A stretch of DNA of 32,000 nt, taken from contig CALBUD010000033.1 of assembly GCA_937968065.1 (NCBI GenBank), positions 632 to 32,631 on the forward strand. Direction: 5' to 3'. Below are positions 1 to 32,000 of this stretch, piece by piece. A model generated the notes under the pieces. It ran no database searches, was not told the origin of the DNA, and worked only from the letters and a program-made list of their open reading frames with translations. Position numbers and translations under genes: made by a program. The DNA comes from Candidatus Iainarchaeum sp. GTDB lineage: Archaea; Iainarchaeota; Iainarchaeia; Iainarchaeales; CSSED10-239. Position 1 is the stretch's first letter. Each line of letters starts with the position of its first letter.

Positions 1-3000
1 CATCTTAAAAGAGAAGTTGAATCAACTAAGGTGTTATCTGATGAATCTTTTAATCTATAATAAACATTTAAAGGATTTGTGTTTCTTGTTTCAACTTCCA
101 TTAAAACAGGAATTGCTTTACTTGGACTAAATATTAAATCAATTATGTTTTCTTGATATTTAACAGATAAAACATTTCCTCTACTTTCAATTGAAGAATT
201 AATCTTATAAATATCATTTGTTTTTGTAATATTTACTGTTCTTAAAGCGTTTGAACCATAATCAGGTGTTGTTACAACATTTTCTTCATCAATTCTTATA
301 GTATCTCCAGTATATGTAACTCCATACCCTTGTCTATTATACCCTGAAGTTGTTTGTCCTACAAAACCATTAAATGGAAGTCTATAAAAAACACTATCTG
401 TTTCTGGAGAAGAAATAAAACCAAAGGTTACAAATGCTTCAGCATCAATTTCTCCATTTCTTTCAAAATTCCAAGAACTATTTTCAAATAAGAAATCTAT
501 TTTTATTCTATATTTTCCTGGAACATTAATATTTACATTATTTGTTTCATCTGAATATTGTTTTATAAATAATAAATTATTTTTGAAAAGTTTAGATAAA
601 TAACCATTATTAAAGGTGGTTGGAGATGACATTATTGAAGAAGAACCTATTTGAGAACCATCTTCTCTTGAAGCAAGACCACCATATGCAGCATCAAAAT
701 CATTTATAAAATTATTATTATATTTATCTGTTATTAAATAAACTTCAAACTCTAAAAGTTCTTTTAATCTTAAAATATCTTGTTCTGTCCATTGAGAAAC
801 AACATTATCAGGATACATCTCTTTATTAAACCACATATCAAGATAACTAATTCCATTTTCTTTAACAGTTGTTGCTGGAACTAAACAATCAGAAGTTTGA
901 GATTGCTCATAAATATCAAGTGAAACTAAAGAACTAAAACTATTATTAAAAGGATCACTATCCTCTCCAGAATAGATGATTGATAAAGAAAGATTTTCTC
1001 CAAGGATTGGAGTTGTTTCATAAAATTCTAAAATAACTTCTGTTGTGGTATCTCCTGAAGTTTGTTTTAGTTCAATTGGTATACTTGAAAGATTTCCTGT
1101 AATTTCTGTTAATTCATCTGTTGAAAAATCTCTAACATATGCTTTCTTTGGTAGTTTATTATCAAGACTTGCTGCTAAGTTTCCATTTTTATTATTTCCT
1201 GTTCTATTATCTAAAGATATTTTAACAATTAATTTTTCTTCAGAAGTTAAAATACTTACTTGATCAATTCCTGTTCTTGAAGCTGAAACATTATAATCTG
1301 CATTATATGGTTGTGCATCTTTAATATAATATGAACCAATTAAAGATTGACTTGCTAAAGATTCTGAACTTATAGGACAAGAAACTGGTTTTGAAGCTAT
1401 TAGTTCTTGTGCTTTATTAATTCTATTTAAAACAACTTGTGTTAATTGAGTTGCATCACAATAGTTTTCAGAACATTTATCTATATCTTCTAAAGACCAA
1501 GACCAATCAAGAGAGATGTTTGGAACAGCACCCTCTCCAGTTTTTCCAATCTTTCCTGTGTCTGTAACACAATCAAGAAGAGTTAAATCATAGTTTGGAG
1601 TTTCTTCTGGTTTTGATATAAAATATGCAAATCTAAATTTTCCTATATTTTCTGTATTTTTAAAAGCAGGATCTTGCATATCTATAGAATCATCTAATGT
1701 TGGATTAAAATCTATTGTTTTAAAGAAATATTTTTTTGAATTATTATTTATTTGTGTATAAAAATCATCAGAAAGATTAAATTGTAAAGGTTTTATACCT
1801 GCTTGTTCAGGCCAGATAACTTCATCTGCTCTACAGGTATATCTAAAGTCTGTTTCAAGTTCTATTTTGTTTCTAGTTGGTTTTGAACCATAACACTCGA
1901 TTGTGTGTGAAAGTTTTCCATCTTCAATAATTGGTTCAAAGATACCACTACAGTTTTGGTTTTTAATTATTTGTGCATCAAACTTATCAAAAATAAATCC
2001 TGGTTGGTTACATAAAGTATAGTTTGATAAAGAAAGATTAGCATTCTTTGTAAGTTTATTTTTTGATGCAGGGTCTGTCATGGTTATAAGATCATGGTAG
2101 GTTATATATCTTGAACCTGTAATATCAAAAATATTTATATAAGAGGTGCTTTCTGAAACATCATTTATTTGTATAATCTTTGTTTTTTCATGATTTGGTT
2201 TTGTATGTTTTTGTTCAATATCTAAAAATCTATTAACTATTAAAGGATATTCAAACTCATTTTTCCAACTAGTTGCAGCCCAAGAAACTAAAGCCCCAAC
2301 TCCAATAGCTGCCCAACCATAAGGCCCAATTCCTGCAAGAGCTGTGTAGATGGCAGTTGAACCTAAAGCGGTTCCAGCTGTTCCTGCAGCTGCTGCAGCA
2401 GCTGCTGTTGCTGCACTAACACCAATAGCTCCACTATAAACACCAATTGCAAGTGTTGAGGTTGTTAAAATTCCTCCAACCCAAGGAACCCACCCAACAT
2501 CTTCATCAATAACTGTTATATATGAAAGATCTCCAAGAGCTTTAAAATTCATTTTTTTAAAAGATTCATCATTTCTATTAAAATTACTTGATAAATATTC
2601 TACAAAAGTTGAGTTTTCAGAAGAAACAGCATTAACTGTTCTATAAGATAGATCCTCTTGACTTGTAGGAATCTCTTTAACATAATCCCATGGATTTTTT
2701 TCTGTATTATTATTATATAATCTTTTTATTTCAGAAACTTTATTTTCAGAAATTTCAATAAATGGATCTTCCATCCATAAACCTGTTTCATCTTTTGCAT
2801 TTATTTTTAAGATTGAAAATGAAGAAGTTATTGTTCTTCCAAAATTATTTTTAACAGAAATTAAATTATTAAGATAATAAGCACCAGGTGCTGTTTTTGA
2901 ATCTTTTCTTTTTATAGAAACAGTTTTTTCAGAATCATTTAAAGAAAATCTTAAAATATTTCTTTCTTCAATTCCTTCTATGATTAAATCTCTACATCCA

Positions 3001-6000
3001 TAATCATCACCATCACAAAGATTCATCTCAAAGGTTGCTTTTCCAACACATTCGTTTTTAATAGTTAGTTCTTTAGAGGAAAGATTTTCTAAAACAAATA
3101 ATCCTCCTTGATTTATTTTTCTTCCAGAATCATAATAAGAGAAACAATCTGTAAGATTCATAACAGAGATATTTGTTTTTAATAATAAATCATTTGGTGA
3201 TTTATTAACATATACAGCTCCCTCTTCAGTTTCAACTTCAGCATTAAAATAAATATTTGTTTTAATATCTGCAAACTTTATACCATTGGTGTTATAAGTT
3301 ATCTCTAAGGTATACTCTTCTTCAGGTCTTATTTCACTTACAACTGTTCTATAGTAGTTTTCTGATAGTTGCACTTGATTTCCAGAACCTGGACCAATAA
3401 CTCTTAAGAAATAAACACCATATCTATCTGCTTCTGAAACTATTTTTGCTTGTAGATTTTTAATTGATATAGGAGTTCTTCCTTCTTTTGAAAGACATGT
3501 GTTTTTAATACTTAGAGAGGTTGTTTGACTTGTTGTTGAAACAACAGTTGTCCATTCTCCAAGACCACCAGTAACAACTAAACAATCATCTGCAAACACA
3601 CCTGTTCCAACAGATAATTTAAGATTTACTGGAATATTAAATAAATAATCATAGTTATTTAAAGAAACTGTTCCTGTTAAAGAACCTATGATATTCTCAC
3701 TAACAGGATGTGTTCTTGCACTCTCTGAGGGTGCAAACTTAACTGTCATTTCTCTTGTTTGGTTTGCAGGTATTGTAAATCCAGATTGTATCTGGTTATT
3801 TATATAATTTTTAGTTTGTGCAAGGTTTAATAAATAAGATTTATTAAAAGAAATATCAATATCATTTATTTCTTTTAAAGTTAATGGATATTCTGTTTTG
3901 TTTTCTAAAGTCAAAGTATATAACTCTCCATCAATATCGTTTTTATGAATAAATGCTTGAAGAGGAGAATCACTTGTTATTTTTTGAGAGTTGTGTAAAA
4001 TATCAATAATATCTTTTGTTACTGTAAACTCAACAGGCTCTGCATAATATTTAGATTTTGTAGCTTCAATTACAAAGGTTTCATTATTTCTTAAAGCAGG
4101 AAGAGAAATATTTGCTTTTCCTTCTCTGTTTGTTTTTCTACCTGTTGATATTGTTAAGTATTCATTATTTATTTTTTGTAAAACATTTATATTTGCACCT
4201 TCTATTAAACCTCCTTGACTATCTTTAACAATAACTGTTAAAATAAAAGGAACTGAAGGTATTATGTTTCTTGGTTCATAATCAATAACCATAGTGTCAA
4301 TCTCTGTTGTTGAAAAGTTAATAGGTAAGGTGTAGATAACTTCATTGTCAGAGACAAGTCTTGTGACTAATTTTGACTGTCCAAGAATTAATGGAAACAA
4401 TCCTAAATTAAAACCAATTTCTGAAAAAGGAGAAAGATTTTCTTTTAAAAGCTCTGGAGTGTTAAAAGGAATATTAAAATTATTTTCTCCAATTGGTGTT
4501 TCTCCAATAGATGAAAACTCACCAAAGATTTCATAATTTTTAATGTTTACCATAGATGTAGGATTATCATCTTTATTTAAGTTTTTAACAGAAAGTCTTG
4601 AAGATGGATAGTTGTTTGAAGAGGAGTTTGTGATTATATATTCAAGAATATAATCTGAGTTAACTTTTAAAGGTACAAGATTATTTTCTTTAATATCATA
4701 TCTTAACCCTTCTAAAACATCCACATACTGTCCTGAAAAACAAAAAGTATCATTACATAAACTTTTAGCATCCACAAAATACTGAAGTTGTGTAAAATTA
4801 TTTCCTAAAAGATTAATATTTCCTTGAGAGGATGCATAAAAGAAAGAAACAAGATCATTTGTTTTAGCATTCTTTATTCTTATAGGAATATATATCTCAT
4901 GTGTTGATGCTGGAAAATTATTTACTTGTATGTTTACAAGTTTTGATTCTAAAAAATTACCTGATTCTGTAAAAGGTTCTTTCTCATAATAGATAGAAGT
5001 TCCTAAAGTACTATTTTCAGGCATTATAAAAACAATATCTTCTTTAACATCTTCATAACTACCAGCTCTTAAAGCAAAATTAAAACCTGTTGAAGAGGGT
5101 GGCATAATAACTTTAAATCTTAAATAAAAGACTTCATTATTTTTTAAAGATTCAACCTTTTGTTCTAAAGCATTATAAAGACCAAGATATTCAACAACTG
5201 TATCTTGTGCTTGACTTGCTCTTTCTAAAACAATTTCTTTTGTAACAGTTTTGTTTTTATAGATTCTAAAAACATCTGTAAAATATGGAAGATAACCATC
5301 AGTTTCAATAAGAACATATACTCTCTTATCTGCTTTTATATCTTTAGATATTCGTCCAATATTTGTTGCAATATCAGTTCCAAGCAATTCACCTGATTCA
5401 GAATAAAAAGTAACTAATGAATTTGAAACAACATCATCTGTTTTATTTTTAATTGAAAGATTTACAGTTCCTTTTCCAATAACAACAGGTAAAGAAACAT
5501 TAGTATCTTCAGGTGGTAAGTTTCTATATTTTGAAGAAATTTCTTCAATATATAAGTTTTTAGTCTTAATTGTAAAATCAATTTCAGGAATATTTTCAAA
5601 AACAGCAACTCCGTTTTCATCAGAAACTGCATAAGAAAATAAAGGATTAATAAAATCAGCATCTCCATCATAAATCCAACTTTTAATACCAATGACAGGT
5701 TTTAAATCTTCATCAAAAATAGAAACATATATGTTTGAAACATTACTTGGTGTTATTTTTTCAAGATTAATATTATAAACTTCTAAACTAGAAGTTATTG
5801 GTATTATTTGTCCAAGATATCCTTCAGCAACAGCTTTTAGAGAATAGTTTTTATTTTTATCTATCTTAAAAATAAAACCATCTTGCTTTTCTCTTTCATC
5901 TATATTTTCAGTTCCATCTAAAAGTAAAGTTACAACAGGATATAAAGAATCTTCTAAAACCTCACCTGTATCTTTATCTTTTACAAAAACAGTAATCTCT

Positions 6001-7019
6001 CTAAGCTCTATAGCTTGATTAGTATCAGGATCTATTAAAGGATTAGAAGTGTTTTGCATATCAATAGTTAGTTCAGAAAGATAATTTTTAAAAACTTCAA
6101 CTTCTTTTTCAGATGCAAGATAATTATTCATAACATCTGTTGCTTTAACAATATATTCTCCAACAGGTATACTTGAAAAAGAACCTTGTGAATTATTTGT
6201 TTGTATTGTTCTAATTGAAGTTACAGGATCATCTTTTGAAAATAATCTTAATGTTATTGAATCATAAATATATTCTTCTCCAGAAACAACCAAAACATTA
6301 ATTGATCCAACATCTGTAACAGGACCTCTTGGTGTTAATTTTATTATTGAATCTGAAAGTTTAACAAGTAAATTTTTTTCATTATATTTATCACTTGAGA
6401 CATCAGCATACATCAGGTTACAAGAAGAAGGAATTTCTATTGCTAAAGAACCAGTTGATGTTTTTGTAAGAGAAGAGGTTACAACTTCTCTATTATCACA
6501 AACAATTGAAACTAAAAGTTCATCTGTTATTTTTTGATTTGTTAAAGTATCTTCAAAATAAATTGTTTTTTTAAAAGAACTTGGAACTTTTAAAACTGTT
6601 AATATAAAATTAAAAGTATTTCTATCAAAAACAATTTCTGTTTCAAAAAAATCATAACCTTCTTTTTCAACAATAACAGTATATAACTTTTTTTTATCAA
6701 GAGAAATTGTAAAAGAACCATTGTTATTTGTTGTATATGTGTTTGTGGTTCCATCTGATAAATTTCTTATCTTAAAATCAAAATTACTTAAGATGTTATC
6801 TTCATTATCAGCAAACCTAATAGTTATGCTTGTAAGATCTGCTTTTTTTCCAATAAAGGAATTTCCAAAAATAAAATAAAGAATAATTAAGAAAATTAAT
6901 AAAAATAAAAAAAAAGAAGTTAAAGCAAACTTTTTATCCAAAGGTGCAGTAATCTTTTTAATTGGGATTCTATCATCTACTTTTGTTAAAAAGTTTTGCC
7001 AAGATTCTTTAAAAGACAT
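1..7019 (-). CDS. Giant N-terminally anchored surface protein, paralog D. The N-terminus is in the window and the C-terminus runs off the left edge (at least 2339 codons).
   Basis: Absent from the ORF track. The minus strand has ATG at 7019..7017, preceded in frame by TAA at 7025..7023. I translated it continuously to the left edge (last full codon 5..3) without meeting a stop. It begins MSFKESWQNFLTKVDDRIPIKKITAPLDKKFALTSFFLFLLIFLIILYFIFG and the last readable residues are YYRLKDSSDNTLVDSTSLLR. The track appears to list only start-to-stop ORFs, and it lists no fragments in this frame. The module order matches the other giants. Confidence 0.9.
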   Translation of the reverse strand, partial: MSFKESWQNFLTKVDDRIPIKKITAPLDKKFALTSFFLFLLIFLIILYFIFGNSFIGKKADLTSITIRFADNEDNILSNFDFKIRNLSDGTTNTYTTNNNGSFTISLDKKKLYTVIVEKEGYDFFETEIVFDRNTFNFILTVLKVPSSFKKTIYFEDTLTNQKITDELLVSIVCDNREVVTSSLTKTSTGSLAIEIPSSCNLMYADVSSDKYNEKNLLVKLSDSIIKLTPRGPVTDVGSINVLVVSGEEYIYDSITLRLFSKDDPVTSIRTIQTNNSQGSFSSIPVGEYIVKATDVMNNYLASEKEVEVFKNYLSELTIDMQNTSNPLIDPDTNQAIELREITVFVKDKDTGEVLEDSLYPVVTLLLDGTENIDEREKQDGFIFKIDKNKNYSLKAVAEGYLGQIIPITSSLEVYNINLEKITPSNVSNIYVSIFDEDLKPVIGIKSWIYDGDADFINPLFSYAVSDENGVAVFENIPEIDFTIKTKNLYIEEISSKYRNLPPEDTNVSLPVVIGKGTVNLSIKNKTDDVVSNSLVTFYSESGELLGTDIATNIGRISKDIKADKRVYVLIETDGYLPYFTDVFRIYKNKTVTKEIVLERASQAQDTVVEYLGLYNALEQKVESLKNNEVFYLRFKVIMPPSSTGFNFALRAGSYEDVKEDIVFIMPENSTLGTSIYYEKEPFTESGNFLESKLVNIQVNNFPASTHEIYIPIRIKNAKTNDLVSFFYASSQGNINLLGNNFTQLQYFVDAKSLCNDTFCFSGQYVDVLEGLRYDIKENNLVPLKVNSDYILEYIITNSSSNNYPSSRLSVKNLNKDDNPTSMVNIKNYEIFGEFSSIGETPIGENNFNIPFNTPELLKENLSPFSEIGFNLGLFPLILGQSKLVTRLVSDNEVIYTLPINFSTTEIDTMVIDYEPRNIIPSVPFILTVIVKDSQGGLIEGANINVLQKINNEYLTISTGRKTNREGKANISLPALRNNETFVIEATKSKYYAEPVEFTVTKDIIDILHNSQKITSDSPLQAFIHKNDIDGELYTLTLENKTEYPLTLKEINDIDISFNKSYLLNLAQTKNYINNQIQSGFTIPANQTREMTVKFAPSESARTHPVSENIIGSLTGTVSLNNYDYLFNIPVNLKLSVGTGVFADDCLVVTGGLGEWTTVVSTTSQTTSLSIKNTCLSKEGRTPISIKNLQAKIVSEADRYGVYFLRVIGPGSGNQVQLSENYYRTVVSEIRPEEEYTLEITYNTNGIKFADIKTNIYFNAEVETEEGAVYVNKSPNDLLLKTNISVMNLTDCFSYYDSGRKINQGGLFVLENLSSKELTIKNECVGKATFEMNLCDGDDYGCRDLIIEGIEERNILRFSLNDSEKTVSIKRKDSKTAPGAYYLNNLISVKNNFGRTITSSFSILKINAKDETGLWMEDPFIEISENKVSEIKRLYNNNTEKNPWDYVKEIPTSQEDLSYRTVNAVSSENSTFVEYLSSNFNRNDESFKKMNFKALGDLSYITVIDEDVGWVPWVGGILTTSTLAIGVYSGAIGVSAATAAAAAAAGTAGTALGSTAIYTALAGIGPYGWAAIGVGALVSWAATSWKNEFEYPLIVNRFLDIEQKHTKPNHEKTKIIQINDVSESTSYINIFDITGSRYITYHDLITMTDPASKNKLTKNANLSLSNYTLCNQPGFIFDKFDAQIIKNQNCSGIFEPIIEDGKLSHTIECYGSKPTRNKIELETDFRYTCRADEVIWPEQAGIKPLQFNLSDDFYTQINNNSKKYFFKTIDFNPTLDDSIDMQDPAFKNTENIGKFRFAYFISKPEETPNYDLTLLDCVTDTGKIGKTGEGAVPNISLDWSWSLEDIDKCSENYCDATQLTQVVLNRINKAQELIASKPVSCPISSESLASQSLIGSYYIKDAQPYNADYNVSASRTGIDQVSILTSEEKLIVKISLDNRTGNNKNGNLAASLDNKLPKKAYVRDFSTDELTEITGNLSSIPIELKQTSGDTTTEVILEFYETTPILGENLSLSIIYSGEDSDPFNNSFSSLVSLDIYEQSQTSDCLVPATTVKENGISYLDMWFNKEMYPDNVVSQWTEQDILRLKELLEFEVYLITDKYNNNFINDFDAAYGGLASREDGSQIGSSSIMSSPTTFNNGYLSKLFKNNLLFIKQYSDETNNVNINVPGKYRIKIDFLFENSSWNFERNGEIDAEAFVTFGFISSPETDSVFYRLPFNGFVGQTTSGYNRQGYGVTYTGDTIRIDEENVVTTPDYGSNALRTVNITKTNDIYKINSSIESRGNVLSVKYQENIIDLIFSPSKAIPVLMEVETRNTNPLNVYYRLKDSSDNTLVDSTSLLR
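2266..2500 (-). other. Internal Gly/Ala-rich hydrophobic segment of about 78 aa (2-3 potential TM spans) in paralog D, about 1500 aa from the N-terminal anchor.
   Basis: My translation reads VGWVPWVGGILTTSTLAIGVYSGAIGVSAATAAAAAAAGTAGTALGSTAIYTALAGIGPYGWAAIGVGALVSWAATSW. The DNA here is a conspicuous GC-rich island of gct/gca codons in an otherwise AT-rich gene. Confidence 0.75.
5225..6850 (-). other. Array of about 6 prealbumin/CarboxypepD_reg-like repeats in paralog D.
   Basis: From my translation, examples are ITIRFADNEDNILSNFDFKIRNLSDGTTNTYTTNNNGSFTISLDKKKLYTVIVEKEGYDFF and ITVFVKDKDTGEVLEDSLYPVVTLLLDG...KNKNYSLKAVAEGYLG. Boundaries are approximate. Confidence 0.55.
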
Positions 7020-7030
7020 GTTTTATACTT

Positions 7031-14854: not shown

Positions 14855-17800
14855 TTATTTAAATTTACTTGGATTGTGCCATAACTTAATTATAGAATCC
14901 TCTATTTTTAAACAAACATTTTCATTATTTATTTGTTCGAAAACATCTTTCATGGTTTTATATGAAATGTTTGGTGACATGTTATTCATTAACACATTGT
15001 ATATTTTAAAGTTGTTATCTACTTCATTTAGGATTGAAAACACACTCATGTTTTTAATATTTGTTATTTGTGGGTTTGAATAGATTGCAAAGTTTGAAGT
15101 TGTATCTTTAAGTAAGAATAAATTCTTACCAGAATAACTTCCAACATCTACATTTCCAGTTGCAGTATTTACAAGCTTACCAGAATAATTTTCATTAAAG
15201 TAGATTGGTCTTGAATCAATGAATCTATAGTTTGCCATATTTTCTAATGTAAAAATATATCCTTTCTGTATCTCTGCCCAATCATTTACAGTGTATGTTG
15301 TTTTAGTATACTCAGGAAGGAAAGGTGCATTTAAAGAATTATTTGTTTGTGCAAACAATGGATTTATTGGATTAAAGAATAAAGGATTTTTAGAATATTC
15401 TTCATCTAAGTCATTTACTTTATCTCCAATCTTTATACTTAAATCATTTCCATTCTTTTTTAAAATAATTAAATATTCTCCTGGAGAAGAAACATTTGTG
15501 TTTTCTGTATAAGTGTAATTATAATCATTAAAAAGACTTCTTGAAGTTTTATAACTTTTTAAAATATTTGTATTATATGGTTCATTAGTATTTGAAAACT
15601 TCTTTAATTTTGAAACAAATAAATTTGGAGAATCTCCAATAAACACTTCCATGTTTAAATAAAACTCTATTTTTTGTGCATTTGTCAAATCATCATACTT
15701 AAAAGTTTCTAAGAAATATTCAACACTCATATAATGATTTCCTCCAAGCATTATTAGTGTATCAGGTATTACAGAAATTCCTGTAACTTTTGTTTTAATA
15801 ATTGTTATCTCTCTTAAATGTTTTGGAACCTTTTCAAGAATATCTTTTGCTTGTTTTATGTATGTTTCAAGTGTCTCTTTTTCATCAAATTCATTACATT
15901 CAACACAAAGATCAAGTACAGCATCTGATTTCTTAATACTTTCACCATCTTTATAAAATAATATTTCTCCAAGTTTTACTTTATCTTGAGTATTTTCTAA
16001 AGAATCTGCTTTCTTTTTTAAATAATCATAGAATTGTTCTTGATCACAATAATATTCTTCACAAGAAGTCTCTGTTATCTTATTTGAATCATATTCAAAT
16101 AATATTTGATCAAATCCTAAAAGTTCATAATTTTCTTTTCCTGTAACTCCATCTTTTGAAGTTAAGGTAGGATCATAACAACTTAGATCTAAAGCTTCAG
16201 TTGTTACTGGTTTTGGAACACTTCCATCATCACAAACCCCTTGAACAGGTGACTTTCCATCATCACAAACTTCTTGTACAGAAACACCTGAAATTGGATT
16301 GGTTTCAATTCTTGTATCCACACCAATCAAAGTATGTCCTTGAAGAACTGATTGTTGAGTGTTTGGATTTATTTGCATAATTGTAAAATTTATTCCTTCT
16401 TTTGTATTTTTATCTTTAAAGAAATCATAAATCTCTAATTTATTATTTTCGCGTCTATCATTATCAATAGTTTCAATTGGTCTTTCAAAACATAATTTAA
16501 AATAATGTTTTTTAATAAACTCAATACTTACCTTTAAAGGAGAAGTATAACTTTCATCAAGATAGAAAAGACCTAAATCTTGTATGTGTGAAGTTTCATT
16601 AATTCCATTTATAGGGAAGTCTTTTACCATACCCATAAAACATCTTTGAGCTGTTTCTTCTAAATCAACTCTTCTAAATTTATTTTTTGTTAAAGCATCT
16701 TCAGGAACTTTAATAAACACAATGTTTCTTCCATCTCTTTGTATTTCTAAATCATATGTTAATTTGACAGAAGTATCCACAAATAATAATTCATCTGCTG
16801 TAAAAATACTATAATTTAAATCTTTTCCTAAAAACTCTTTAATAATCTCCCAGTTATCTCTATTATCTAAGATAAGCCATTGGAAATTATCTTTAAGTTC
16901 CATACCAACATTATGGTAGACTAATGAAGACATACCGTGTGGAGGTTGAAGACCAACTTGCAGCACAAACTTTAAGTTAACCTCATCTTCTACATCTATA
17001 AGCATTCTTCTAAAAGTTGAAATCACTCCTGCTGCAATTGAATTTTGACCATATTTATTCATGTATGCTTTTGCAGAAGAAGTATTTTTAATCTCAGGAT
17101 TTCTTCTTAAAGCTATATCCCATACTTCTATAGGTTTGTTTGTTTGAAGATCTGTTAAATAATCAACCTTTATAGGTTGTATTCTTCCTTGCATATCTCC
17201 AACATTTAAGAAAGAAACACCATCAAAATCAAGTGAAGTTAAATCTAAATAATTAACTTCAACAAGTCTGTATCCTTGATCAAAACAAGTGTTCATAACT
17301 TTTACTAATTGATACTTAGGATCAAAAATATTTGAAAAATCTAATTTTTGTGGAGTTACTTGTATACATTTTGAAGGCATAAAACTTAATGGTAAAGTTA
17401 CATTTACAGGAACCTCTCCAACAAGAGAATAAACATTTTCAGAAGCAAGAGAAGGTTTTGCTGTAACTGGAACTCTAAAAGTTCCCATTTCTTCTGCACC
17501 TGTAACTAAGACTTGTGTGCTTTGATTTGGTTCTAAAGTAAATTCTTTATCTGAAGAGACTACAACTCCATAGTTTTGTTCAAGTTTAATATCAACTGCT
17601 TCTAGACAATTGTTTGTAACTGTAAATGGTCTTACAGGACAGTTCATACTATTTGTAAAACCCATACCTCCATAACCACCTTGCATATAAGGATCCATGA
17701 AGTTATAATAATTATAATTACTATATTGATTTTGGTATTGTGAAGTTGGATAATTATAAGGATAAACAGTTGAAGCTTGTTGTCCAAAATATCCTGTTTG

Positions 17801-20800
17801 TCCAACTAAGTTTTGTTGTGGGAAGTTATATCCTTGTTGTTGTGTCATATATCCTGGAGCATACTGATATTGATTTAATGGATTAAATTGTCTGTTCATG
17901 TTATAACTTTGAGCATAATTTACTCCTCCAAAATATCCACCACTCATTTGTTGATTATAAAGAGCAGGATTTAAGTTTCTATTAAACTGTCCTAAAGCTC
18001 CTTGTCCATAATATTGATCATACATACCCATTCCAGAAAACCAATTACATGCAATAACAGGAACTGGTTGTTGTGGAATATCTATACATTCTGAATAATT
18101 GTTAACTATAATGTTTGTTTTTAAACTTGATTTTATTTCATCAATACCATTCATGTTTCCTTTTAAAGAACTAAAGTGAATGGTTGGAGAAGTAACTGAA
18201 GAAGTTACTTTATGAGCTTTAAACTTTAATGTTGCTGTTGTTTTTGTGTTTCTTGGCATGCTTGGAATTATTATATTTTCTTGTAAGTTTTCAAGAATAT
18301 ATTCTCTATTATTTATAACTAAAGATAAAACACCAGATTCAGTTTTATTTTCCCAATCAACCATTGCAATAATATTTCCTAAGTCAACAGCATTAAGATT
18401 TGAAGAACATTTATTCTCAATTGTAAAATCAATTGTTTTTTCTTCACTTGCAGTTGTTCTTATAGTTGCATCTAAAGGCAATATTTTCAAACAATCAAGA
18501 GAATCAAGAGCGTTTCCTAAAACAACTCTAACAGTTACAGGAATATTTATCATCCAAGTTTTATTTAATTCATCATTTCTAACTCTTACTTGAACAGTTG
18601 TTTTAATTGTTTGTTGTGTATAAAGATTAATTCCTTTTTCAGTTAAGGTTGCAACAAGTTCTACATCTGCTTGTGAATCTCCATTAATAATGTTTTCTGA
18701 AAGGTTTGTGTTTAATGTAACAAACTCATTATTTGTAGTTGTTGAAACTGAAACTATAGATAAAGGAACAGAAGTGTTATTTAAAAGACTAAAATTATAA
18801 ATCTCTCTAACATCTCTTGAAGTATCTAAATTAAGAATTATTTCTTGAGGAACAGGAGTTATAACTTTATCATCTATAACAACAGATGTATCATTCATCC
18901 TATATTCGTTTTTTGTAACTATAATTCTTAAAGTATCATTTAGATCTGGTGCTGGAAGAATAAATCCAAATAATCCTTGAGCATCTGTGTTTCCTGTTGT
19001 TATAACATAATCATTTAATAAAACATTAACATTTGCTTCAGGAACAACAGACCCTTGAGAATCTGTAACTTTTAAAATAACATCATTTGGAAGAAGAGGA
19101 ATTATTTTTCTTGGAAACATTTCAACTTGCATTTCTTTTGCTTCTTTAATATCTATTAATATGCTTTTTGAAAATACTTCTTCTCCATTTGAAATTAAAG
19201 ATATTTTTACAACATCTGAAACATCATCAATCACTCTAAAACTTAAATCTCCTGAAATAAAATCATTTGAAGTTAAAGAACCAATTTCAATTTCTGAAAA
19301 GTCAGTTCCTGTTAAAAGATTTCCTGAAACTGAATTAATACTGTATTCTTGAAGTCTTACAGAGTTTCCTGTTGTTATTGAAAGATAAGAATTTGGAGCG
19401 TTCTTTCCTTCTAAAATATTAAGATTAAATGAAAGTCTATAATCATTATTTATTTGAGCATTATAATTATCAATTATGTTTCTTGTAAGATTTGTTTGTG
19501 TGTTTCTAATACTTACACTATAACATAAAAGAGAAGAACATTGGTTTTGAGAACCTATAAATAAAATTGCTTGTTTTACTTGAGCATACAAAGGTTGTTT
19601 TGTTGAATTTGTTAAAGAATTATCAACAGGTGATCTAAAGATTGTTGAATTTTCAAAAAATTCAGCTCTATAATTTACAAATTGGTTTTGAAGAGCTGTA
19701 TCAAGAACAACTATATCTGCTTCAACTAAATAACTTCCTTCCATAGGGTTATTAATAGTTAAATTAAACCATTTTGCATTTCTTAAAGTCTTGTTTGAAA
19801 AATCAGTTGTTTCTCCAAGACAAGGTGTAAAGGTTTCAGAACCTACAAAACTTGGTTTTGCAAATCTTATTTCTTTTATGAAAAGATTATCTTCTAAAAC
19901 ATTATATGTTGTTGTTGAACAAGCAGGGCTTGGAGCATCACCGGTTCTTATGTGTGCAACTATTTTTGAATATTTTTTACTTGCATTAACAACAAACTTT
20001 GCAGTTACTTGTTGACCTGAAGTTACAGAATTTATTTTTTCTCCTAAAGAATTATAAAAACCTATAAACTCAATTGAAGAGGTGCTTGTTGTTCTTGGAA
20101 GAACAAATTCTAAATTTTTAATTTCTTCTGCTGAGATTTTATATCTTGGTGTTATTAACTTACTATCATAATTATCAATTACAAAATAAACTTCTTTATC
20201 AGCTCTTATTTTTATAAAAGTAAAACCTTCTTGGTTTGTGCTTGTTATTTTATCTTCTAAGATTAAATCATTAGAAGCATCATATACAAAAACATTTCCT
20301 TGATAATTTTCTCCAAAATCTGTTATTAAAGAAATATTAAATGTTCCTTCTCCAATAATCATTTTTATTTTTTGTTCATTTATTTCTTGTGGAACTATTC
20401 TAAATGGATTTGTGTGCTCTGATACAAAGTCTCCTTTAATAGCATCAAGTTTATATGTTTTTTCAGAATCTAGATTTGGAATAACAACTTTACCATAAAC
20501 GTCTGCTGTCATAGTTTTAATAACAATATTTTCTTCAGCATCCCAAAGTCTTACAACAGCAAAATCAATTGGTTTAAAGAAAGCATCTTCAACAGTTACA
20601 AGTAAACTATTTAGATTTTCACTTGTAAGAGGATGTAGAATAACTTGTCTTACAGTATCTGATATTTTTAAATTATTTTCTGTTTTTATAATATAATTTT
20701 CATTATTAAAAATAACTTTATAAGTAATGTTTTCTTCAACACCGAAAGTTACAAGACCTTCTATGTTTGTTTGTAAGGTTTTAACTAATGTGTTTGATTT

Positions 20801-21880
20801 ATATAAACTTACAGAAACATTTGGAATTGCTTCTTTTGAAACATTATCAATAACTTTAAACTTAAGATGTCCGATATATGCTTTTTCAAGAAGAACTTCT
20901 TTTTCTTCTAAAATATTCTCTGTAATTATTATTTGAATATTATCAAGTTCTGTTAATGGTTTATATCTATCATCAAGATCATAAGATAAAACAGTATAAG
21001 TTCCAACTAAAAGATCATTAAAAACAACAACACCATTTGAGTTTGTAACTCCTTCTCTTGCTATTTGTTTTTCTTTATTTAAAATACCAATACTTAAATT
21101 ATTAATTGGTGTTTTTAAATCTTTATCTAAAAATCTTAAAGAAACATTTCCTTTTCTTGATTCTTGGAAACTTAAGTTTACTTCTTTAACAGTATTATCA
21201 TTATCTACTAAAAAAGATTCAGTTGTATTTATTGTTGGAGAATTAATTAATATATTTAAATAACCACAATCTGTTGGAACATCAGATAAAGTTAAAGTTC
21301 CATCATTTGTTATAAGATTTGTTTTTAAATAATTTGAATTTTCAGAACAAGTTATTTCTGAAACTGTTAATGGAGAGGTAAAAAGTTCATTGTTTGATTT
21401 AAAATTAATTGTTTTTGAAAAGAAACCTGTTTTTGATGCTAAATAAACATTATAATTATTTTGAGTATTAAAGTTTACTGATAAAGGAGTTTCTAAAGAA
21501 TATTTATCACTGTTAATTGCAAAGCTTAAAGATTCTTTTTTAACACCAGTAACTGTTGAAATTCCCATCTCATCTGTAACTAATAGTTTTTCTGTATCTC
21601 CAAACATAACTCTTATGGTTTCATTTGGAATTGGATTATTAAAAGAGTCTGTAAATCTTAAGGTATAAGAATCATCTGTTACAGGAGAACTGCCTATAAA
21701 TAGATATACTAAAAATAATATTAATAAAAGAATAATAAGATTAAAAACAAAGAAAGTTGGGATTCCTTTTTTTTCTAAAGGATCAACAATCTTGTATAGA
21801 TTTATACCTTTTTTTTCAAGATTATCTAACCATTTAAAGTATTTTTCTTCTTGTTTATAATAAAAAGATCTAAGTCCCAT
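14855..21880 (-). CDS. Giant N-terminally anchored surface protein, paralog B (about 2341 aa from the ATG), containing a Q/N/Y/G-rich low-complexity loop.
   Basis: The track ORF is 14855..21883. Its first codon (21883..21881) reads TTG and the second (21880..21878) is ATG. From the ATG the protein starts MGLRSFYY, parallel to MGLKKLYY of paralog C, so I prefer 21880. The stop is TAA at 14855. It has a leader, a TM helix (IPTFFVFNLIILLLILFLVYLF), repeats and Cys-bracketed modules like the other giants. Confidence 0.93.
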   Translation of the reverse strand: MGLRSFYYKQEEKYFKWLDNLEKKGINLYKIVDPLEKKGIPTFFVFNLIILLLILFLVYLFIGSSPVTDDSYTLRFTDSFNNPIPNETIRVMFGDTEKLLVTDEMGISTVTGVKKESLSFAINSDKYSLETPLSVNFNTQNNYNVYLASKTGFFSKTINFKSNNELFTSPLTVSEITCSENSNYLKTNLITNDGTLTLSDVPTDCGYLNILINSPTINTTESFLVDNDNTVKEVNLSFQESRKGNVSLRFLDKDLKTPINNLSIGILNKEKQIAREGVTNSNGVVVFNDLLVGTYTVLSYDLDDRYKPLTELDNIQIIITENILEEKEVLLEKAYIGHLKFKVIDNVSKEAIPNVSVSLYKSNTLVKTLQTNIEGLVTFGVEENITYKVIFNNENYIIKTENNLKISDTVRQVILHPLTSENLNSLLVTVEDAFFKPIDFAVVRLWDAEENIVIKTMTADVYGKVVIPNLDSEKTYKLDAIKGDFVSEHTNPFRIVPQEINEQKIKMIIGEGTFNISLITDFGENYQGNVFVYDASNDLILEDKITSTNQEGFTFIKIRADKEVYFVIDNYDSKLITPRYKISAEEIKNLEFVLPRTTSTSSIEFIGFYNSLGEKINSVTSGQQVTAKFVVNASKKYSKIVAHIRTGDAPSPACSTTTYNVLEDNLFIKEIRFAKPSFVGSETFTPCLGETTDFSNKTLRNAKWFNLTINNPMEGSYLVEADIVVLDTALQNQFVNYRAEFFENSTIFRSPVDNSLTNSTKQPLYAQVKQAILFIGSQNQCSSLLCYSVSIRNTQTNLTRNIIDNYNAQINNDYRLSFNLNILEGKNAPNSYLSITTGNSVRLQEYSINSVSGNLLTGTDFSEIEIGSLTSNDFISGDLSFRVIDDVSDVVKISLISNGEEVFSKSILIDIKEAKEMQVEMFPRKIIPLLPNDVILKVTDSQGSVVPEANVNVLLNDYVITTGNTDAQGLFGFILPAPDLNDTLRIIVTKNEYRMNDTSVVIDDKVITPVPQEIILNLDTSRDVREIYNFSLLNNTSVPLSIVSVSTTTNNEFVTLNTNLSENIINGDSQADVELVATLTEKGINLYTQQTIKTTVQVRVRNDELNKTWMINIPVTVRVVLGNALDSLDCLKILPLDATIRTTASEEKTIDFTIENKCSSNLNAVDLGNIIAMVDWENKTESGVLSLVINNREYILENLQENIIIPSMPRNTKTTATLKFKAHKVTSSVTSPTIHFSSLKGNMNGIDEIKSSLKTNIIVNNYSECIDIPQQPVPVIACNWFSGMGMYDQYYGQGALGQFNRNLNPALYNQQMSGGYFGGVNYAQSYNMNRQFNPLNQYQYAPGYMTQQQGYNFPQQNLVGQTGYFGQQASTVYPYNYPTSQYQNQYSNYNYYNFMDPYMQGGYGGMGFTNSMNCPVRPFTVTNNCLEAVDIKLEQNYGVVVSSDKEFTLEPNQSTQVLVTGAEEMGTFRVPVTAKPSLASENVYSLVGEVPVNVTLPLSFMPSKCIQVTPQKLDFSNIFDPKYQLVKVMNTCFDQGYRLVEVNYLDLTSLDFDGVSFLNVGDMQGRIQPIKVDYLTDLQTNKPIEVWDIALRRNPEIKNTSSAKAYMNKYGQNSIAAGVISTFRRMLIDVEDEVNLKFVLQVGLQPPHGMSSLVYHNVGMELKDNFQWLILDNRDNWEIIKEFLGKDLNYSIFTADELLFVDTSVKLTYDLEIQRDGRNIVFIKVPEDALTKNKFRRVDLEETAQRCFMGMVKDFPINGINETSHIQDLGLFYLDESYTSPLKVSIEFIKKHYFKLCFERPIETIDNDRRENNKLEIYDFFKDKNTKEGINFTIMQINPNTQQSVLQGHTLIGVDTRIETNPISGVSVQEVCDDGKSPVQGVCDDGSVPKPVTTEALDLSCYDPTLTSKDGVTGKENYELLGFDQILFEYDSNKITETSCEEYYCDQEQFYDYLKKKADSLENTQDKVKLGEILFYKDGESIKKSDAVLDLCVECNEFDEKETLETYIKQAKDILEKVPKHLREITIIKTKVTGISVIPDTLIMLGGNHYMSVEYFLETFKYDDLTNAQKIEFYLNMEVFIGDSPNLFVSKLKKFSNTNEPYNTNILKSYKTSRSLFNDYNYTYTENTNVSSPGEYLIILKKNGNDLSIKIGDKVNDLDEEYSKNPLFFNPINPLFAQTNNSLNAPFLPEYTKTTYTVNDWAEIQKGYIFTLENMANYRFIDSRPIYFNENYSGKLVNTATGNVDVGSYSGKNLFLLKDTTSNFAIYSNPQITNIKNMSVFSILNEVDNNFKIYNVLMNNMSPNISYKTMKDVFEQINNENVCLKIEDSIIKLWHNPSKFK
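17639..18049 (-). repeat. Q/N/Y/G-rich low-complexity (prion-like composition) loop, 135 residues between two Cys codons, in paralog B.
   Basis: The loop reads C NWFSGMGMYDQYYGQGALGQFNRNLNPALYNQQMSGGYFGGVNYAQSYNMNRQFNPLNQYQYAPGYMTQQQGYNFPQQNLVGQTGYFGQQASTVYPYNYPTSQYQNQYSNYNYYNFMDPYMQGGYGGMGFTNSMN C. Both Cys codons (18049..18047 and 17641..17639) were checked to be in frame. Confidence 0.85.
20095..21675 (-). other. Array of about 6 prealbumin/CarboxypepD_reg-like repeats in paralog B.
   Basis: Examples are GHLKFKVIDNVSKEAIPNVSVSLYKSNTLVKTLQTNIEGLVTFGVEENITYKVIFNNENY and LLVTVEDAFFKPIDFAVVRLWDAEENIVIKTMTADVYGKVVIPNLDSEKTYKLDAIKGDF. Boundaries are approximate. Confidence 0.6.
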
Positions 21881-21896
21881 CAAATCACATTCTCTC

Positions 21897-21906
21897 TTAT
21901 ATATAA
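21897..21906 (-). promoter_or_regulatory. TATA-box-like TTATATATAA at -26..-17 relative to the paralog B ATG. No canonical SD is present, so this is a possible leaderless-type promoter.
   Basis: The minus strand reads ATATTATATATAAGAGAGAATGTGATTTGATG. It lies at the end of a 204-nt AT-rich spacer. Confidence 0.3.
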
Positions 21907-22058
21907 TATATTATAATATTTAACAACATAACCTTTTAAAAACTATCTTTATTTTTTTTATAAAGATAATTGTATATTATATATTTATGTGCTTATATAT
22001 TTAAATACCTTTTCATTAACATTAAAAAGTTAATATTTATAAAAATTCTTGTTTTTTT

Positions 22059-22066
22059 AAAAAAAA
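22059..22066 (-). terminator. T8 tract on the coding strand, 22 nt after the 558-aa gene stop. Terminator candidate.
   Basis: The minus strand reads TGATAATTTAACTTAAAAAAAAGATTTTTTTTAAAAAAAC. Confidence 0.35.
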
Positions 22067-22087
22067 TCTTTTTTTTAAGTTAAATTA

Positions 22088-23764
22088 TCAATTACCATTT
22101 CCAGCAATACAAGCAGCAGGACCTGCTGTTTGTCCTTCATAACTTATACAGCTCCAATTATTATTGTTTAGAAGAGGAGAAGTAATTGTTGTAGAATCTA
22201 AAAAATATGGTTTAAAGTTATTGTTAAAACTATTTACATAACTATTATCATAAAAAGAAAAAGAAGTAAAATTATCTCTTAATTTTATATGAATATCAAC
22301 AGAATCTTCTGAAACTATATATTTTGGATTTTCTTCTGTAAATTTTAATTCTATGTCTAATTGTGAAAGAGTATGACATACAAGATTTGAATTTAAAGGA
22401 TCTGGTGAAATACCAGAAGTTATATCTGAAATAACAGAAGTTTTATTTTCATTATCAATTTTAAGTCCAAGATTTGATGCTTTATTAAAACTATTAGGAT
22501 CAAAAGAAACAGAAGAAATTGAACCTACATTTTTTCCTGTAGCAATAGTGTTTACAACATTTTTTGTAATCTTATTACTTGAAGTTATAGAAACATTATT
22601 TATTTTAAAATCATCTTGTCCAATAGTTCCATTTGTTGTTAATGAATTATTTCCTGCTCCCCCAGAATTAATAATATCATTTCTTCCTTGAAGATTACTT
22701 CTTAAAGTTGTTTCAACAAGATTTTTATAAGTATCTCTAGAATCAAAATCAGATAAATTATAACTAAAAGAAGAACTTAAGTTAACAATTGTTCCTGCTC
22801 TTGAAACATTTATACCAGAACCATTATTTGCAGAAAAGGAAGAAACAACAGGAAGAAGATTACATTCATTTTGAAAACCATCTTTATTTGCAGTTTTAAA
22901 TAAATCTTCTCTAGGTGCACAACTATCAATATCACACACACCTATCTTTGCACTATTTAAAGTATAATGAATATTTGGATTAAAAAAACCTCTTGAGTCT
23001 AATGATCTTCTAATTATAGTTGTTGTTTCTGGTTCTTTTTCAACATCTGCTGTTAAGGAAAAATTTCTTGCAGTTCTTAAAGCTTGAAAACCTCTCCAAG
23101 GAAGATATATTCTATATTCTCTTCTTGCAAAAACAGGTCTTTGCACAACTTCATTATCTCTTAATTTTTCAACAACAACCATTGGAAGTTTTTCATAATC
23201 CTGTGAAGATAAAGTTCTAGTATCTATTGTAAAATAAAGAGAACCTAAACAAATATTATCTTCTCTTTCACATCTAACAACTTCTATTTTTTTATCTCCT
23301 GCAAGATTAAAAGATTCTTTAATAATTCTTGAAAGTTCTGTTCTATCATATTCAGGAATATTTAAAGAATAACCAATCGGTGGATTTGAATATTGTAATG
23401 ACTGTACAAGATTTTGTGCAAAGAAACTCTCAAATTGACTATCAAAAAAAATATCATTTGCAAAATACTCTATAAAATCATCCCAGCTAAGCATCAAATT
23501 ATTTCTTGACACAACAATATGATTACTAGGATCACTTCTATGTGCAGCCCATTTTTCTCTAAAAGAAACAACAAAAATATTAAAAGCATCTGCTCTTGAA
23601 AGATCAGCAATTGTTAAAAGATCTGAATTATTTGATTGATCTTCAATTAATGCTAAATAATTTTCTTCAGTTTGTACCATGTTGTAGATAAAAACTATAG
23701 TTATTGAAACAAGCATTAATGCAATCATTGCTGTAAAAAGATTAAATCCTTTTTGATTAAACAT
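22088..23764 (-). CDS. Type IV pilin-like / class III signal peptide-like protein (558 aa), a large minor-pilin or tip-adhesin candidate.
   Basis: Complete ORF, ATG at 23764..23762 and TGA at 22088 followed immediately in frame by TAA. The N-terminus MFNQKG/FNLFTAMIALMLVSITIVFIYNMV has a short basic leader ending in K-G and then about 23 hydrophobic residues. That is the prepilin peptidase substrate pattern, with Thr rather than Glu at +5. AAGGA lies 9 nt upstream. The C-terminus has a Cys-x12-Cys loop (CISYEGQTAGPAAC). Confidence 0.9.
   Translation of the reverse strand: MFNQKGFNLFTAMIALMLVSITIVFIYNMVQTEENYLALIEDQSNNSDLLTIADLSRADAFNIFVVSFREKWAAHRSDPSNHIVVSRNNLMLSWDDFIEYFANDIFFDSQFESFFAQNLVQSLQYSNPPIGYSLNIPEYDRTELSRIIKESFNLAGDKKIEVVRCEREDNICLGSLYFTIDTRTLSSQDYEKLPMVVVEKLRDNEVVQRPVFARREYRIYLPWRGFQALRTARNFSLTADVEKEPETTTIIRRSLDSRGFFNPNIHYTLNSAKIGVCDIDSCAPREDLFKTANKDGFQNECNLLPVVSSFSANNGSGINVSRAGTIVNLSSSFSYNLSDFDSRDTYKNLVETTLRSNLQGRNDIINSGGAGNNSLTTNGTIGQDDFKINNVSITSSNKITKNVVNTIATGKNVGSISSVSFDPNSFNKASNLGLKIDNENKTSVISDITSGISPDPLNSNLVCHTLSQLDIELKFTEENPKYIVSEDSVDIHIKLRDNFTSFSFYDNSYVNSFNNNFKPYFLDSTTITSPLLNNNNWSCISYEGQTAGPAACIAGNGN
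23678..23764 (-). other. Prepilin-type (class III) signal and N-terminal hydrophobic helix of the 558-aa protein.
   Basis: The leader MFNQKG is followed by FNLFTAMIALMLVSITIVFIYNM. It has a basic residue at -2 and Gly at -1. Confidence 0.6.
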
Positions 23765-23773
23765 TTTTATTTT

Positions 23774-23778
23774 TCCTT
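23774..23778 (-). promoter_or_regulatory. Weaker SD-like AAGGA, 9 nt upstream of the 558-aa gene ATG.
   Basis: The minus strand reads CTTAAAGGAAAAATAAAAATG. Confidence 0.4.
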
Positions 23779-23810
23779 TAAGTTAAATATCTTTAATTTA
23801 AAAATATTAA

Positions 23811-23820
23811 TTATATAGAA
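23811..23820 (-). promoter_or_regulatory. TATA-box-like TTCTATATAA about 47-56 nt upstream of the 558-aa gene ATG.
   Basis: The minus strand reads TTCTATATAATTAATATTTTTAAATTAAAGATATTTAACTTAAAGGAAAAATAAAAATG. This would give a leader of about 25 nt carrying the SD-like motif. Confidence 0.25.
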
Positions 23821-23872
23821 GTAGTTTATATTTTTATAAGTTTCTTTTTTTAATTAAAAAATATTTTTTAAT

Positions 23873-23899
23873 AAAAAATAAAAAAAATTAATAAAAAAA
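23873..23899 (-). terminator. Oligo-T tracts (T7, T8, T6 on the coding strand) directly after the paralog A stop, an archaeal-style intrinsic terminator candidate.
   Basis: The minus strand after TAA reads CTTTTTTTATTAATTTTTTTTATTTTTTATT. No stable hairpin is needed for archaeal termination. Confidence 0.4.
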
Positions 23900-23900
23900 G

Positions 23901-31934: not shown

Positions 31935-31953
31935 ATTTATTTCTTTTTTTAAT

Positions 31954-31963
31954 TATATTAAAA
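31954..31963 (-). promoter_or_regulatory. TATA-box-like TTTTAATATA at -29..-20 relative to the paralog A ATG. No SD is present, so this is a possible archaeal promoter for a leaderless or short-leader mRNA.
   Basis: The minus strand reads TTTTAATATAATTAAAAAAAGAAATAAATATG. The context is very AT-rich, so specificity is low. Confidence 0.3.
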
Positions 31964-32000
31964 TATTATATATATATATTCATAAGATATATAAAGTTTT

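Follow-up and report, generated by a model that had tools for sequence, protein, structure and literature searches.

A conserved protein with a prepilin-type N-terminus is encoded between giant surface-protein genes of Iainarchaeota

Gene B and its locus

The stretch of DNA analysed here (the window) is a 32-kb segment of contig CALBUD010000033.1 from a Candidatus Iainarchaeum sp. assembly (GCA_937968065.1), and the subject is its gene B, which encodes a pilin-like protein between two genes for giant surface proteins. The window has a GC content of 27%. No more than six genes fill it, every one of them on the minus strand: the four giants A, C, D and F, a protein of 962 amino acids (aa) with a Sec-type signal (E), and gene B (Table 1). 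All four giants are built alike, with a 30-60-residue cytoplasmic motif at the N-terminus, a single transmembrane (TM) helix and long arrays of CarboxypepD_reg or immunoglobulin (Ig)-like domains. An earlier reading of the sequence (the original prediction) had described gene B as an open reading frame (ORF) of 558 aa located between giant genes, with Gly at position -1 and Thr at position +5 of a putative cleavage site, and all of this was found as described. Its statement that no assembly ATPase, platform protein or prepilin peptidase is encoded within the 32 kb also held.

The product of gene B starts with MFNQKG|FNLFTAMIALMLV..., that is, with a 6-residue leader containing one Lys, followed by Phe at +1. 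Residues 7-30 form an uncharged hydrophobic stretch which begins directly after the predicted cleavage site. In a hydropathy scan residues 6-32 were the sole hydrophobic segment of the protein, with a Kyte-Doolittle maximum of 2.49 in a 19-residue window.

Table 1. Features of gene B and of the surrounding genes in the window (positions count from the first nucleotide of the window).
Feature	Position	Strand	Basis and remarks
Gene B (pilin-like protein)	22088..23764	(-)	ORF and translation; 558 aa, ATG start, TGA stop
Predicted class III leader MFNQKG, putative cleavage after Gly6	23747..23764	(-)	Family-wide motif; cleavage predicted
Alpha1N-like hydrophobic segment FNLFTAMIALMLVSITIVFIYNMV, +1 to +24, Thr +5	23675..23746	(-)	Hydropathy, information content, matches to pilin hidden Markov models
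Predicted continuous N-terminal helix, residues 6-77 (72 residues)	23534..23749	(-)	AlphaFold2; holds invariant Glu33 and the conserved ADLxRADAxQxFN...R motif
Conserved N-terminal module, residues 29-305	22850..23680	(-)	Helix, helical loop region, 5-stranded sheet, C165-C172, C277-C282; common to all family members
Variable beta-rich C-terminal module, residues 306-558	22091..22849	(-)	Secondary structure of the model; length and sequence vary across the family
C-terminal Cys539-x12-Cys552 loop	22109..22150	(-)	Both Cys invariant or nearly so in the family; predicted beta-hairpin 538-542/551-554
Spacer upstream of B, 136 nt	23765..23900	(-)	Oligo-T tracts (T7/T8) after the gene A stop; 7% GC
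Spacer downstream of B, 204 nt	21884..22087	(-)	T8 tract 21 nt past the stop (22059-22066)
Giant A, 2677 aa	23901..31934	(-)	N-terminal cytoplasmic motif, TM 47-81, Ig-like repeats, extra hydrophobic hairpin 2161-2206
Giant C, 2341 aa from ATG	14855..21880	(-)	TTG one codon upstream at 21883
Giant D, 1603 aa	10014..14825	(-)	TM-anchored, CarboxypepD_reg repeats, acidic ETPDD tail
Protein E, 962 aa	7042..9930	(-)	Ordinary Sec-type signal peptide (…VAPISA|NE)
Giant F, cut by the window end	1..7022	(-)	Full length 2492 aa

A prepilin-type N-terminus shared by the B family

A word-index search returned 16 relatives of B, and an exhaustive profile search extended this to 237 clusters at 50% identity, with E-values below 1e-30 for 164. 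The family is unnamed: Pfam found no domain in any of the 16 members, and on the whole of B neither Pfam nor NCBIfam found a domain beyond residue ~50, the only hits being weak N-terminal pilin matches.

Every homologous cluster with a complete N-terminus carries the consensus [KR][GA]|F[NT]LFTAL[VI][SA]. Among 112 aligned members position -1 is G in 77 and A in 35; these members were selected by a pattern demanding G or A there, and no departure was seen among the full-length members listed. At -2, 109 of the 112 have K or R (Lys5 in the window protein; the rare exceptions are T, N, G, L and S), and all of them have Phe at +1. In a wider set of 138 members the motif continues with N or T at +2, L at +3, F at +4, T (124 members) or S (14 members) at +5, A at +6 and L at +7. 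The leaders are mostly 4-12 residues long. Positions +1 to +9 hardly vary, and information content is highest between -2 and +9, at the cytoplasmic end of the helix. This speaks for a class III peptidase site, because such a peptidase reads its substrate there, whereas a plain membrane anchor is little constrained in that region.

Prepilins have G, A or S at -1, archaeal ones have a charged residue at -2, and Glu at +5 is not needed (PMC4371748). The B family agrees with what that source gives for archaeal substrates. The original prediction had likened Thr at +5 to many archaeal class III substrates, for which the absence of Glu5 is indeed normal. The Glu or Asp found at +5 in bacterial pilins and in a subset of archaeal ones is absent from B and is replaced in the window protein by Thr11. 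A home-made rule modelled on FlaFind, the kind of check that the original prediction had proposed, was positive for 41 of 46 B-family ORFs. The five negatives comprise two mis-called long starts, one truncated ORF and two ORFs with L or S at -2. Altogether the prepilin-substrate reading of the N-terminus that had been proposed from a single sequence is supported and is much stronger at the level of the family, with 112 aligned members, matches to pilin models and clean controls.

The giants themselves were also considered as class III substrates with long leaders ('KG|IPTF'). This was rejected, as paralogs differ in the residue preceding the TM helix (G, N, V or F) and would have leaders of 35-60 residues.

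Comparison with pilin models

The N-terminus of the window protein has no Pfam match, and its sole NCBIfam match is the model of the minor pilin ComGF (E-value 0.006-0.1). The family consensus matched ComGF (1.2e-5), ComGE (5.8e-4), ComGD (0.017) and a prepilin-type cleavage/methylation model, in each case from model position 1. When 30 natural N-termini of the family were compared with NCBIfam, 25 matched ComGF (best E-value 7.3e-6), 14 ComGE, 6 ComGD and 5 ComGC; fewer matched PilV, GspG/H/I, XpsI and HpsB, and the alignments again begin at model position 1. As a control, the same search was made with 10 TM or signal segments taken from giants and Sec proteins of this cluster, with 0 matches to pilin models.

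The Pfam N_methyl model scored the B consensus at 10.3 bits, and a T5E variant made in silico scored 23.6 bits against a threshold of 21.2. Judged by its residues, the B motif is of the bacterial GFTLIE type minus the glutamate and not of the archaeal QxSxEYL type.

Predicted structure and ectodomain

AlphaFold2 was run on B with the alignment of 112 sequences and gave a confident model (pLDDT 92.2, pTM 0.88). In the model the long N-terminal helix (6-77) is followed by a helical loop region, a sheet of five strands (160-221), further helices and a beta-rich C-terminal half. The conserved module (residues 29-305) was predicted separately with a pLDDT of 88.8. The succession of helix, loop and sheet is the order expected of a pilin module, and no pilin is among the Foldseek matches of the model; the structural comparison to minor pilins, suggested in the original prediction, leans negative as far as predicted models can tell. 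To the searches made here the modelled ectodomain appears as a new fold.

The first ~300 residues are common to all family members and the C-terminal half is variable. Invariant or near-invariant positions are F7, E33, D59, R69, P194, P222, R224 and eight Cys, the latter compatible with four disulfides. They include C539 and C552, so the C-terminal Cys-x12-Cys loop noted earlier is both present and conserved. The window protein has 12 N-x-S/T sequons, of which 10 lie in the C-terminal module. The conserved Cys and the sequons fit an extracellular, glycosylated protein.

Conservation of the gene neighbourhood

One genome per species was scanned for B, which gave 43 loci. Nearly all come from metagenome-assembled genomes (MAGs) of Iainarchaeota; a few records are labelled otherwise, yet have the same gene order. 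Loci are cited below by number (L003 and so on), and classes of homologous proteins by cluster (c0, c2, c3, c13). In ~30 loci B stands between a giant of class c2 (2500-3300 aa) and a giant of class c0 (2100-2700 aa), in that order. A c2-class giant, orthologous to giant A, immediately precedes B in 30 of the 41 loci with usable upstream sequence, and a c0-class giant, orthologous to giant C, immediately follows it in 24 of the 34 with usable downstream sequence. The exceptions are mostly contig ends or split genes. The order is kept even in relatives of B at 24-27% identity, across genomes which differ widely in GC content. The link between B and the giants is real and ancient.

In close relatives the full cluster comprises a helix-turn-helix (HTH) protein and a small membrane protein, then A-F, two Sec-type proteins, a fifth giant and two small membrane proteins. 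B is the one conserved small subunit of this giant surface-protein cluster.

The cluster itself has been described before. In a report on Candidatus Forterrea, a 42-kb cluster of five membrane-anchored proteins of >1,800 aa was proposed to act in cell-cell interaction (PMC5905446). That is the cluster studied here: in the complete genome of Candidatus Forterrea multitransposorum (CP045477.1; locus L005) a B ortholog with 52% identity lies between the giants. In the text accessible to us that report (PMC5905446) describes the giants only and does not mention the 558-aa pilin-like gene.

Incomplete copies of the B N-terminus (KAFTLFTAL...) were observed upstream of full B in L028 (~548) and L046 (~2402), two contigs of one MAG (SMAG_U8205). 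These remnants may be pseudogene fragments or assembly repeats.

Pilin-related genes around B and elsewhere in archaea

No type II secretion or competence genes were found near B. A search for small 'major pilins' sharing the B N-terminus was made with a 45-aa profile and dropped, as it gave four tiny fragments only. Archaeal pilin genes are often unlinked from pilB/pilC, and one archaeal peptidase serves both flagellins and large substrates outside filaments, for example the sugar-binding proteins of the bindosome (PMC4371748). Type IV filament systems are common in DPANN archaea (bioRxiv 10.64898/2026.04.22.720090). For Iainarchaeota a literature search on pili found nothing specific. The Forterrea genome is reported to encode a 'secretion-related ATPase' (PMC5905446).

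Two further ORFs have N-termini which by eye look like archaeal class III signals. One is a 157-aa ORF on the minus strand of L017 (N-terminus 'GQSSLDYLMTYG' / 'EEGQSSLDYLMTYGMALVLIA') and the other a 297-aa ORF downstream of B in L026 ('KAQAALEYLITYGWA' / 'KAQAALEYLITYGWALVAIA'). Pfam did not confirm either of them: the best match of Class_IIIsignal to these N-termini has an E-value of 1 and 9.8 bits. If the signals are real, the lineage also has prepilin-peptidase substrates of the usual archaeal type.

Relation to known protein families

B resembles the archaeal class III proteins (substrates of PibD/FlaK/EppA, including the sugar-binding proteins of the Sulfolobus bindosome) in its short charged leader, K/R at -2, G/A at -1 and hydrophobic helix of ~20 residues. 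Like them it has no need for Glu5, its gene may lie away from pilus machinery, and a length of several hundred residues is possible. It differs from them in the motif after the site, F-[NT]-L-F-T-A-L in B and Q-x-S-x-E-Y-L in theirs, and in having an ectodomain without a known domain.

The best-scoring models for the B N-terminus are those of bacterial minor pilins and pseudopilins (ComGF/ComGE/ComGD, the GspK and PilX class, and N_methyl, PF07963). B shares with GspK a non-acidic residue at +5, and a single T5E change suffices for N_methyl. Unlike these bacterial proteins, B matches over its first ~40 residues only, yielded no GspK or other pilin domain or fold in the searches made, and is found in an archaeal host. 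The likeness to the GspK/PilX class that the original prediction had drawn was not seen to extend past the N-terminus, as no such domain was found with Pfam or NCBIfam and no structural match was obtained.

The modular type IV pilins PilB and PilC of Streptococcus sanguinis (PMC8179133) offer a third comparison. They too are large and join a pilin-type N-terminus to extracellular modules presumed to be adhesive. Unlike B, they have a recognisable pilin module with a known grafted domain (vWA, lectin) and are encoded in a pilus locus. The signal type of the N-terminus and the existence of large modular pilins are thus already known. What is new is an undescribed family and fold, the fixation of a motif of bacterial type lacking Glu5 throughout an archaeal phylum, and the coupling of the gene to giant adhesin genes and not to pilus machinery.

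Interpretation of gene B

The reading preferred here, to which about even chances are given, is that B is a prepilin-type surface protein cut after Gly6, with a pilin-style helix as anchor and stalk and a novel ectodomain that organises or anchors giants A and C. B would be inserted N-in/C-out through its single N-terminal hydrophobic helix. An archaeal prepilin peptidase of the PibD/FlaK type would cut behind Gly6 on the cytoplasmic side and release the leader of 6 residues, so that the mature protein would start at Phe7. The retained helix of ~70 residues, the first 24 of them hydrophobic, would serve as a pilin-style anchor and stalk, and the disulfide-stabilised, probably glycosylated ectodomain would bind or organise giants A and C into a joint attachment surface. 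In functional terms B is probably a pilin-style anchor or adaptor of a host-attachment apparatus. Its incorporation into a filament is possible within this explanation, with the balance of probability against it. Cleavage is predicted from the motif, and on present evidence B should not be named a type IV pilin.

Several results weigh against this reading. Motif scans and gene maps of 51 loci revealed no pilus ATPase, platform protein or A24 peptidase within 10-27 kb, including 10 kb past the last giant; the flanking-sequence search that had been proposed as a check on the original prediction was in this respect negative. The fetched DNA (~800 kb) has no Walker A motif of the T2SSE type and no GxGD peptidase motif. 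No small pilin with the B N-terminal motif lies nearby, since a regular-expression search over all loci (~800 kb) recovered only B genes and the two remnants. No natural B sequence passes a curated pilin threshold, and even the consensus stays at 10.3 bits in N_methyl where 21.2 are required. TIGR02532 and Class_IIIsignal (PF04021) give no match for B, and the ComGF matches are far below the cut-off of 80 bits, because only the first ~40 positions align. Foldseek searches with the full model gave no significant match in PDB (best E-value 0.43) or BFVD (best E-value 0.15), nor did a search with the 29-305 module against PDB (best E-value 0.33), and family profiles of the full protein and of the N-terminal part had no match among PDB sequences. 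At the level of the motif, position -2 is L or S in two members of the family, and the crude FlaFind-like rule is also positive on some giants ('KG|IPTF...'), at a site which is not conserved among giants.

Much of this would be expected if B were an uncleaved signal anchor, which is a serious rival with a clearly smaller probability. B would then be a bitopic type II membrane protein, its conserved residues serving helix contacts with the TM segments of the giants or recognition by an insertase, and for the giants it would be either a stalk in the membrane or a factor in their assembly, comparable in function to S-layer stalk proteins such as SlaB. The single N-terminal TM helix continuing as a long helix outside the membrane, the lack of a detected pilin fold, the curated pilin models not passed, the neighbourhood free of pilus machinery and partner pilins, and the strict coupling to TM-anchored giants all agree with this, and the gene context is explained equally well. 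Left unexplained are the G or A before Phe +1 in every aligned member with K or R at -2 in 97%, the focus of conservation at the cytoplasmic helix end, and the specific matches to pilin models, which are absent for the giants' own anchors. It is quite unlikely that B is instead a true minor or tip pilin, forming the first subunit of a type IV-like pilus with machinery and major pilin elsewhere in the genome, the ectodomain as adhesin, and the giants as neighbours in host attachment and not physical partners. The prepilin-like N-terminal signature would suit such a protein. Glu5 is also absent in tip pseudopilins such as GspK. Archaeal pilin genes frequently lie apart from pilB/pilC, and pilins can be both large and modular, as in the case of PilB of S. 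sanguinis (PMC8179133). The same two giant genes flank B across the whole phylum, which argues for a direct functional link, and no pilin fold, no partner pilin sharing the motif in the ~800 kb of related DNA and no machinery in the loci examined was seen. The roles of 'tip adhesin' and 'filament nucleator' put forward in the original prediction are ones that B might have.

An ordinary secreted protein whose Sec signal peptide is cut by signal peptidase I is highly improbable. B does begin with a short, positively charged N-terminus followed by a hydrophobic stretch, as such a protein would. Its hydrophobic run of 24 residues is followed by NMVQTEE with no Sec-type cleavage motif and no conserved small-x-small site, and the conservation precedes the hydrophobic core and does not follow it. 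Protein E supplies an internal contrast, as it has a Sec signal of the typical kind, which looks quite different and has no pilin matches. The original prediction would have been refuted by an ordinary Sec signal peptide or an uncleaved anchor with no pilin-like fold; of these, a Sec-type cleavage motif was looked for and none was found. A last possibility, considered unlikely, is an undescribed surface organelle with B as the pilin-like subunit that nucleates or anchors it. In such an organelle a prepilin-type helix would hold or prime the TM-anchored giants that grip hosts, with no dedicated pilus motor or with one borrowed from elsewhere in the genome. If so, the N_methyl-like motif of bacterial type in an archaeal phylum would go back to an ancient acquisition of a pilin N-terminus, put to use in a new principle of assembly.

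The window comes from a tiny symbiotic DPANN archaeon of the Iainarchaeota (Diapherotrites), and DPANN archaea depend on contact with other cells. Among small proteins, the B family alone is a strictly conserved partner of the giants across the phylum, and B makes the attachment apparatus more tractable, with a single protein of 558 aa, a single predicted cleavage site and a single predicted set of partners. As a prepilin-type surface protein it would broaden the known uses of prepilin-type N-termini in archaea.

Spacers around gene B

The spacer upstream of B contains TATATAAT 45 nt before the ATG and AAGGA 9 nt before it (23774-23778). The separate spacer, the Shine-Dalgarno-like motif and the T-tract to which the original prediction pointed are thus present, but their value as signals is not discriminating in DNA so rich in AT. 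They are consistent with a transcription unit of its own for B, and at 7-12% GC they do not discriminate. The intergenic spacers at 23765-23900, 21884-22087 and 31935-32000 have 6-12% GC against 27% for the window, and because of this composition scans for consensus promoters and terminators are uninformative here. Candidate hairpin 'terminators' fall within the coding region.

Other features of the giant cluster

The N-termini of the giants (31800-31934, 21760-21880, 14720-14825 and 6900-7022; also in L003 and L047) share a conserved cytoplasmic motif, F/Y-Y-x-x-L-E-D-K-Y-Y ... D-K-[IL]-[DE]-x-K-G-[IL]-P-[STA]-F. It leads directly into the TM helix, with '[IVLM]-P-[STA]-F' at the helix start, and no Pfam family covers it. 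The motif may be a common targeting or anchoring signal. For giant C the likelier start is the ATG at 21880, where the orthologs begin (MGL[RK]SFYY); the ORF lister had chosen the TTG at 21883. Giant A has a second hydrophobic region at residues 2161-2206 (window ~25317-25454), ~470 residues before the C-terminus, made of overlapping TM-like segments rich in Gly and Cys. Giant A may re-enter or cross the membrane again at this place. The C-terminus of giant D (10014-10110) is an acidic tandem repeat, TPEDETPDDETPDDETPEDETPEDETSEDETS.

Giant C (14855-14930), protein E (7042-7190), the fifth giant and c13 proteins of 496-514 aa have in common the C-terminal motif A-C-x(7-10)-[IL]-x-[WY]-[NHD], in many cases accompanied by another Cys; it was seen also in L036, L039, L045, L047 and L048. 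It may be a common capping or assembly element. B and E both have 'C-I-S-Y-x-G' and a terminal 'A-C-I-x-x-N'. Homology of the two proteins, suggested by their Cys-containing tails, was dropped after BLASTP gave nothing significant.

Beyond giant F, three loci (L047 17352-27281, L048 17530-27306 and L051 17538-27464) continue with Cys-rich Sec-type proteins of 120-155 aa and 724-816 aa. These are followed by the fifth giant (2113-2148 aa), which has a longer cytoplasmic N-terminus, and by two small multi-TM proteins, one of which starts with 'NK(E)KGF' and loosely resembles the B leader.

At the other end of the cluster, a mini exosortase/archaeosortase-like gene (c3) lies immediately upstream of the A-class giant in 10 loci: L003 (766-1338), L014, L015, L017, L023, L037-L039, L043 and L045. 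By ORF calls its product has 172-305 aa (~190 aa in the called L003 gene; the call of 305 aa is likely a mis-called start). The protein retains the Cys ('IS.LC.G'), Arg ('N..R') and His ('H..LFR') motifs, and no obvious C-terminal sorting signal was noticed in any protein of the cluster. In the clade of the window, the HTH protein and a 111-aa membrane protein are found at the position of the exosortase-like gene.

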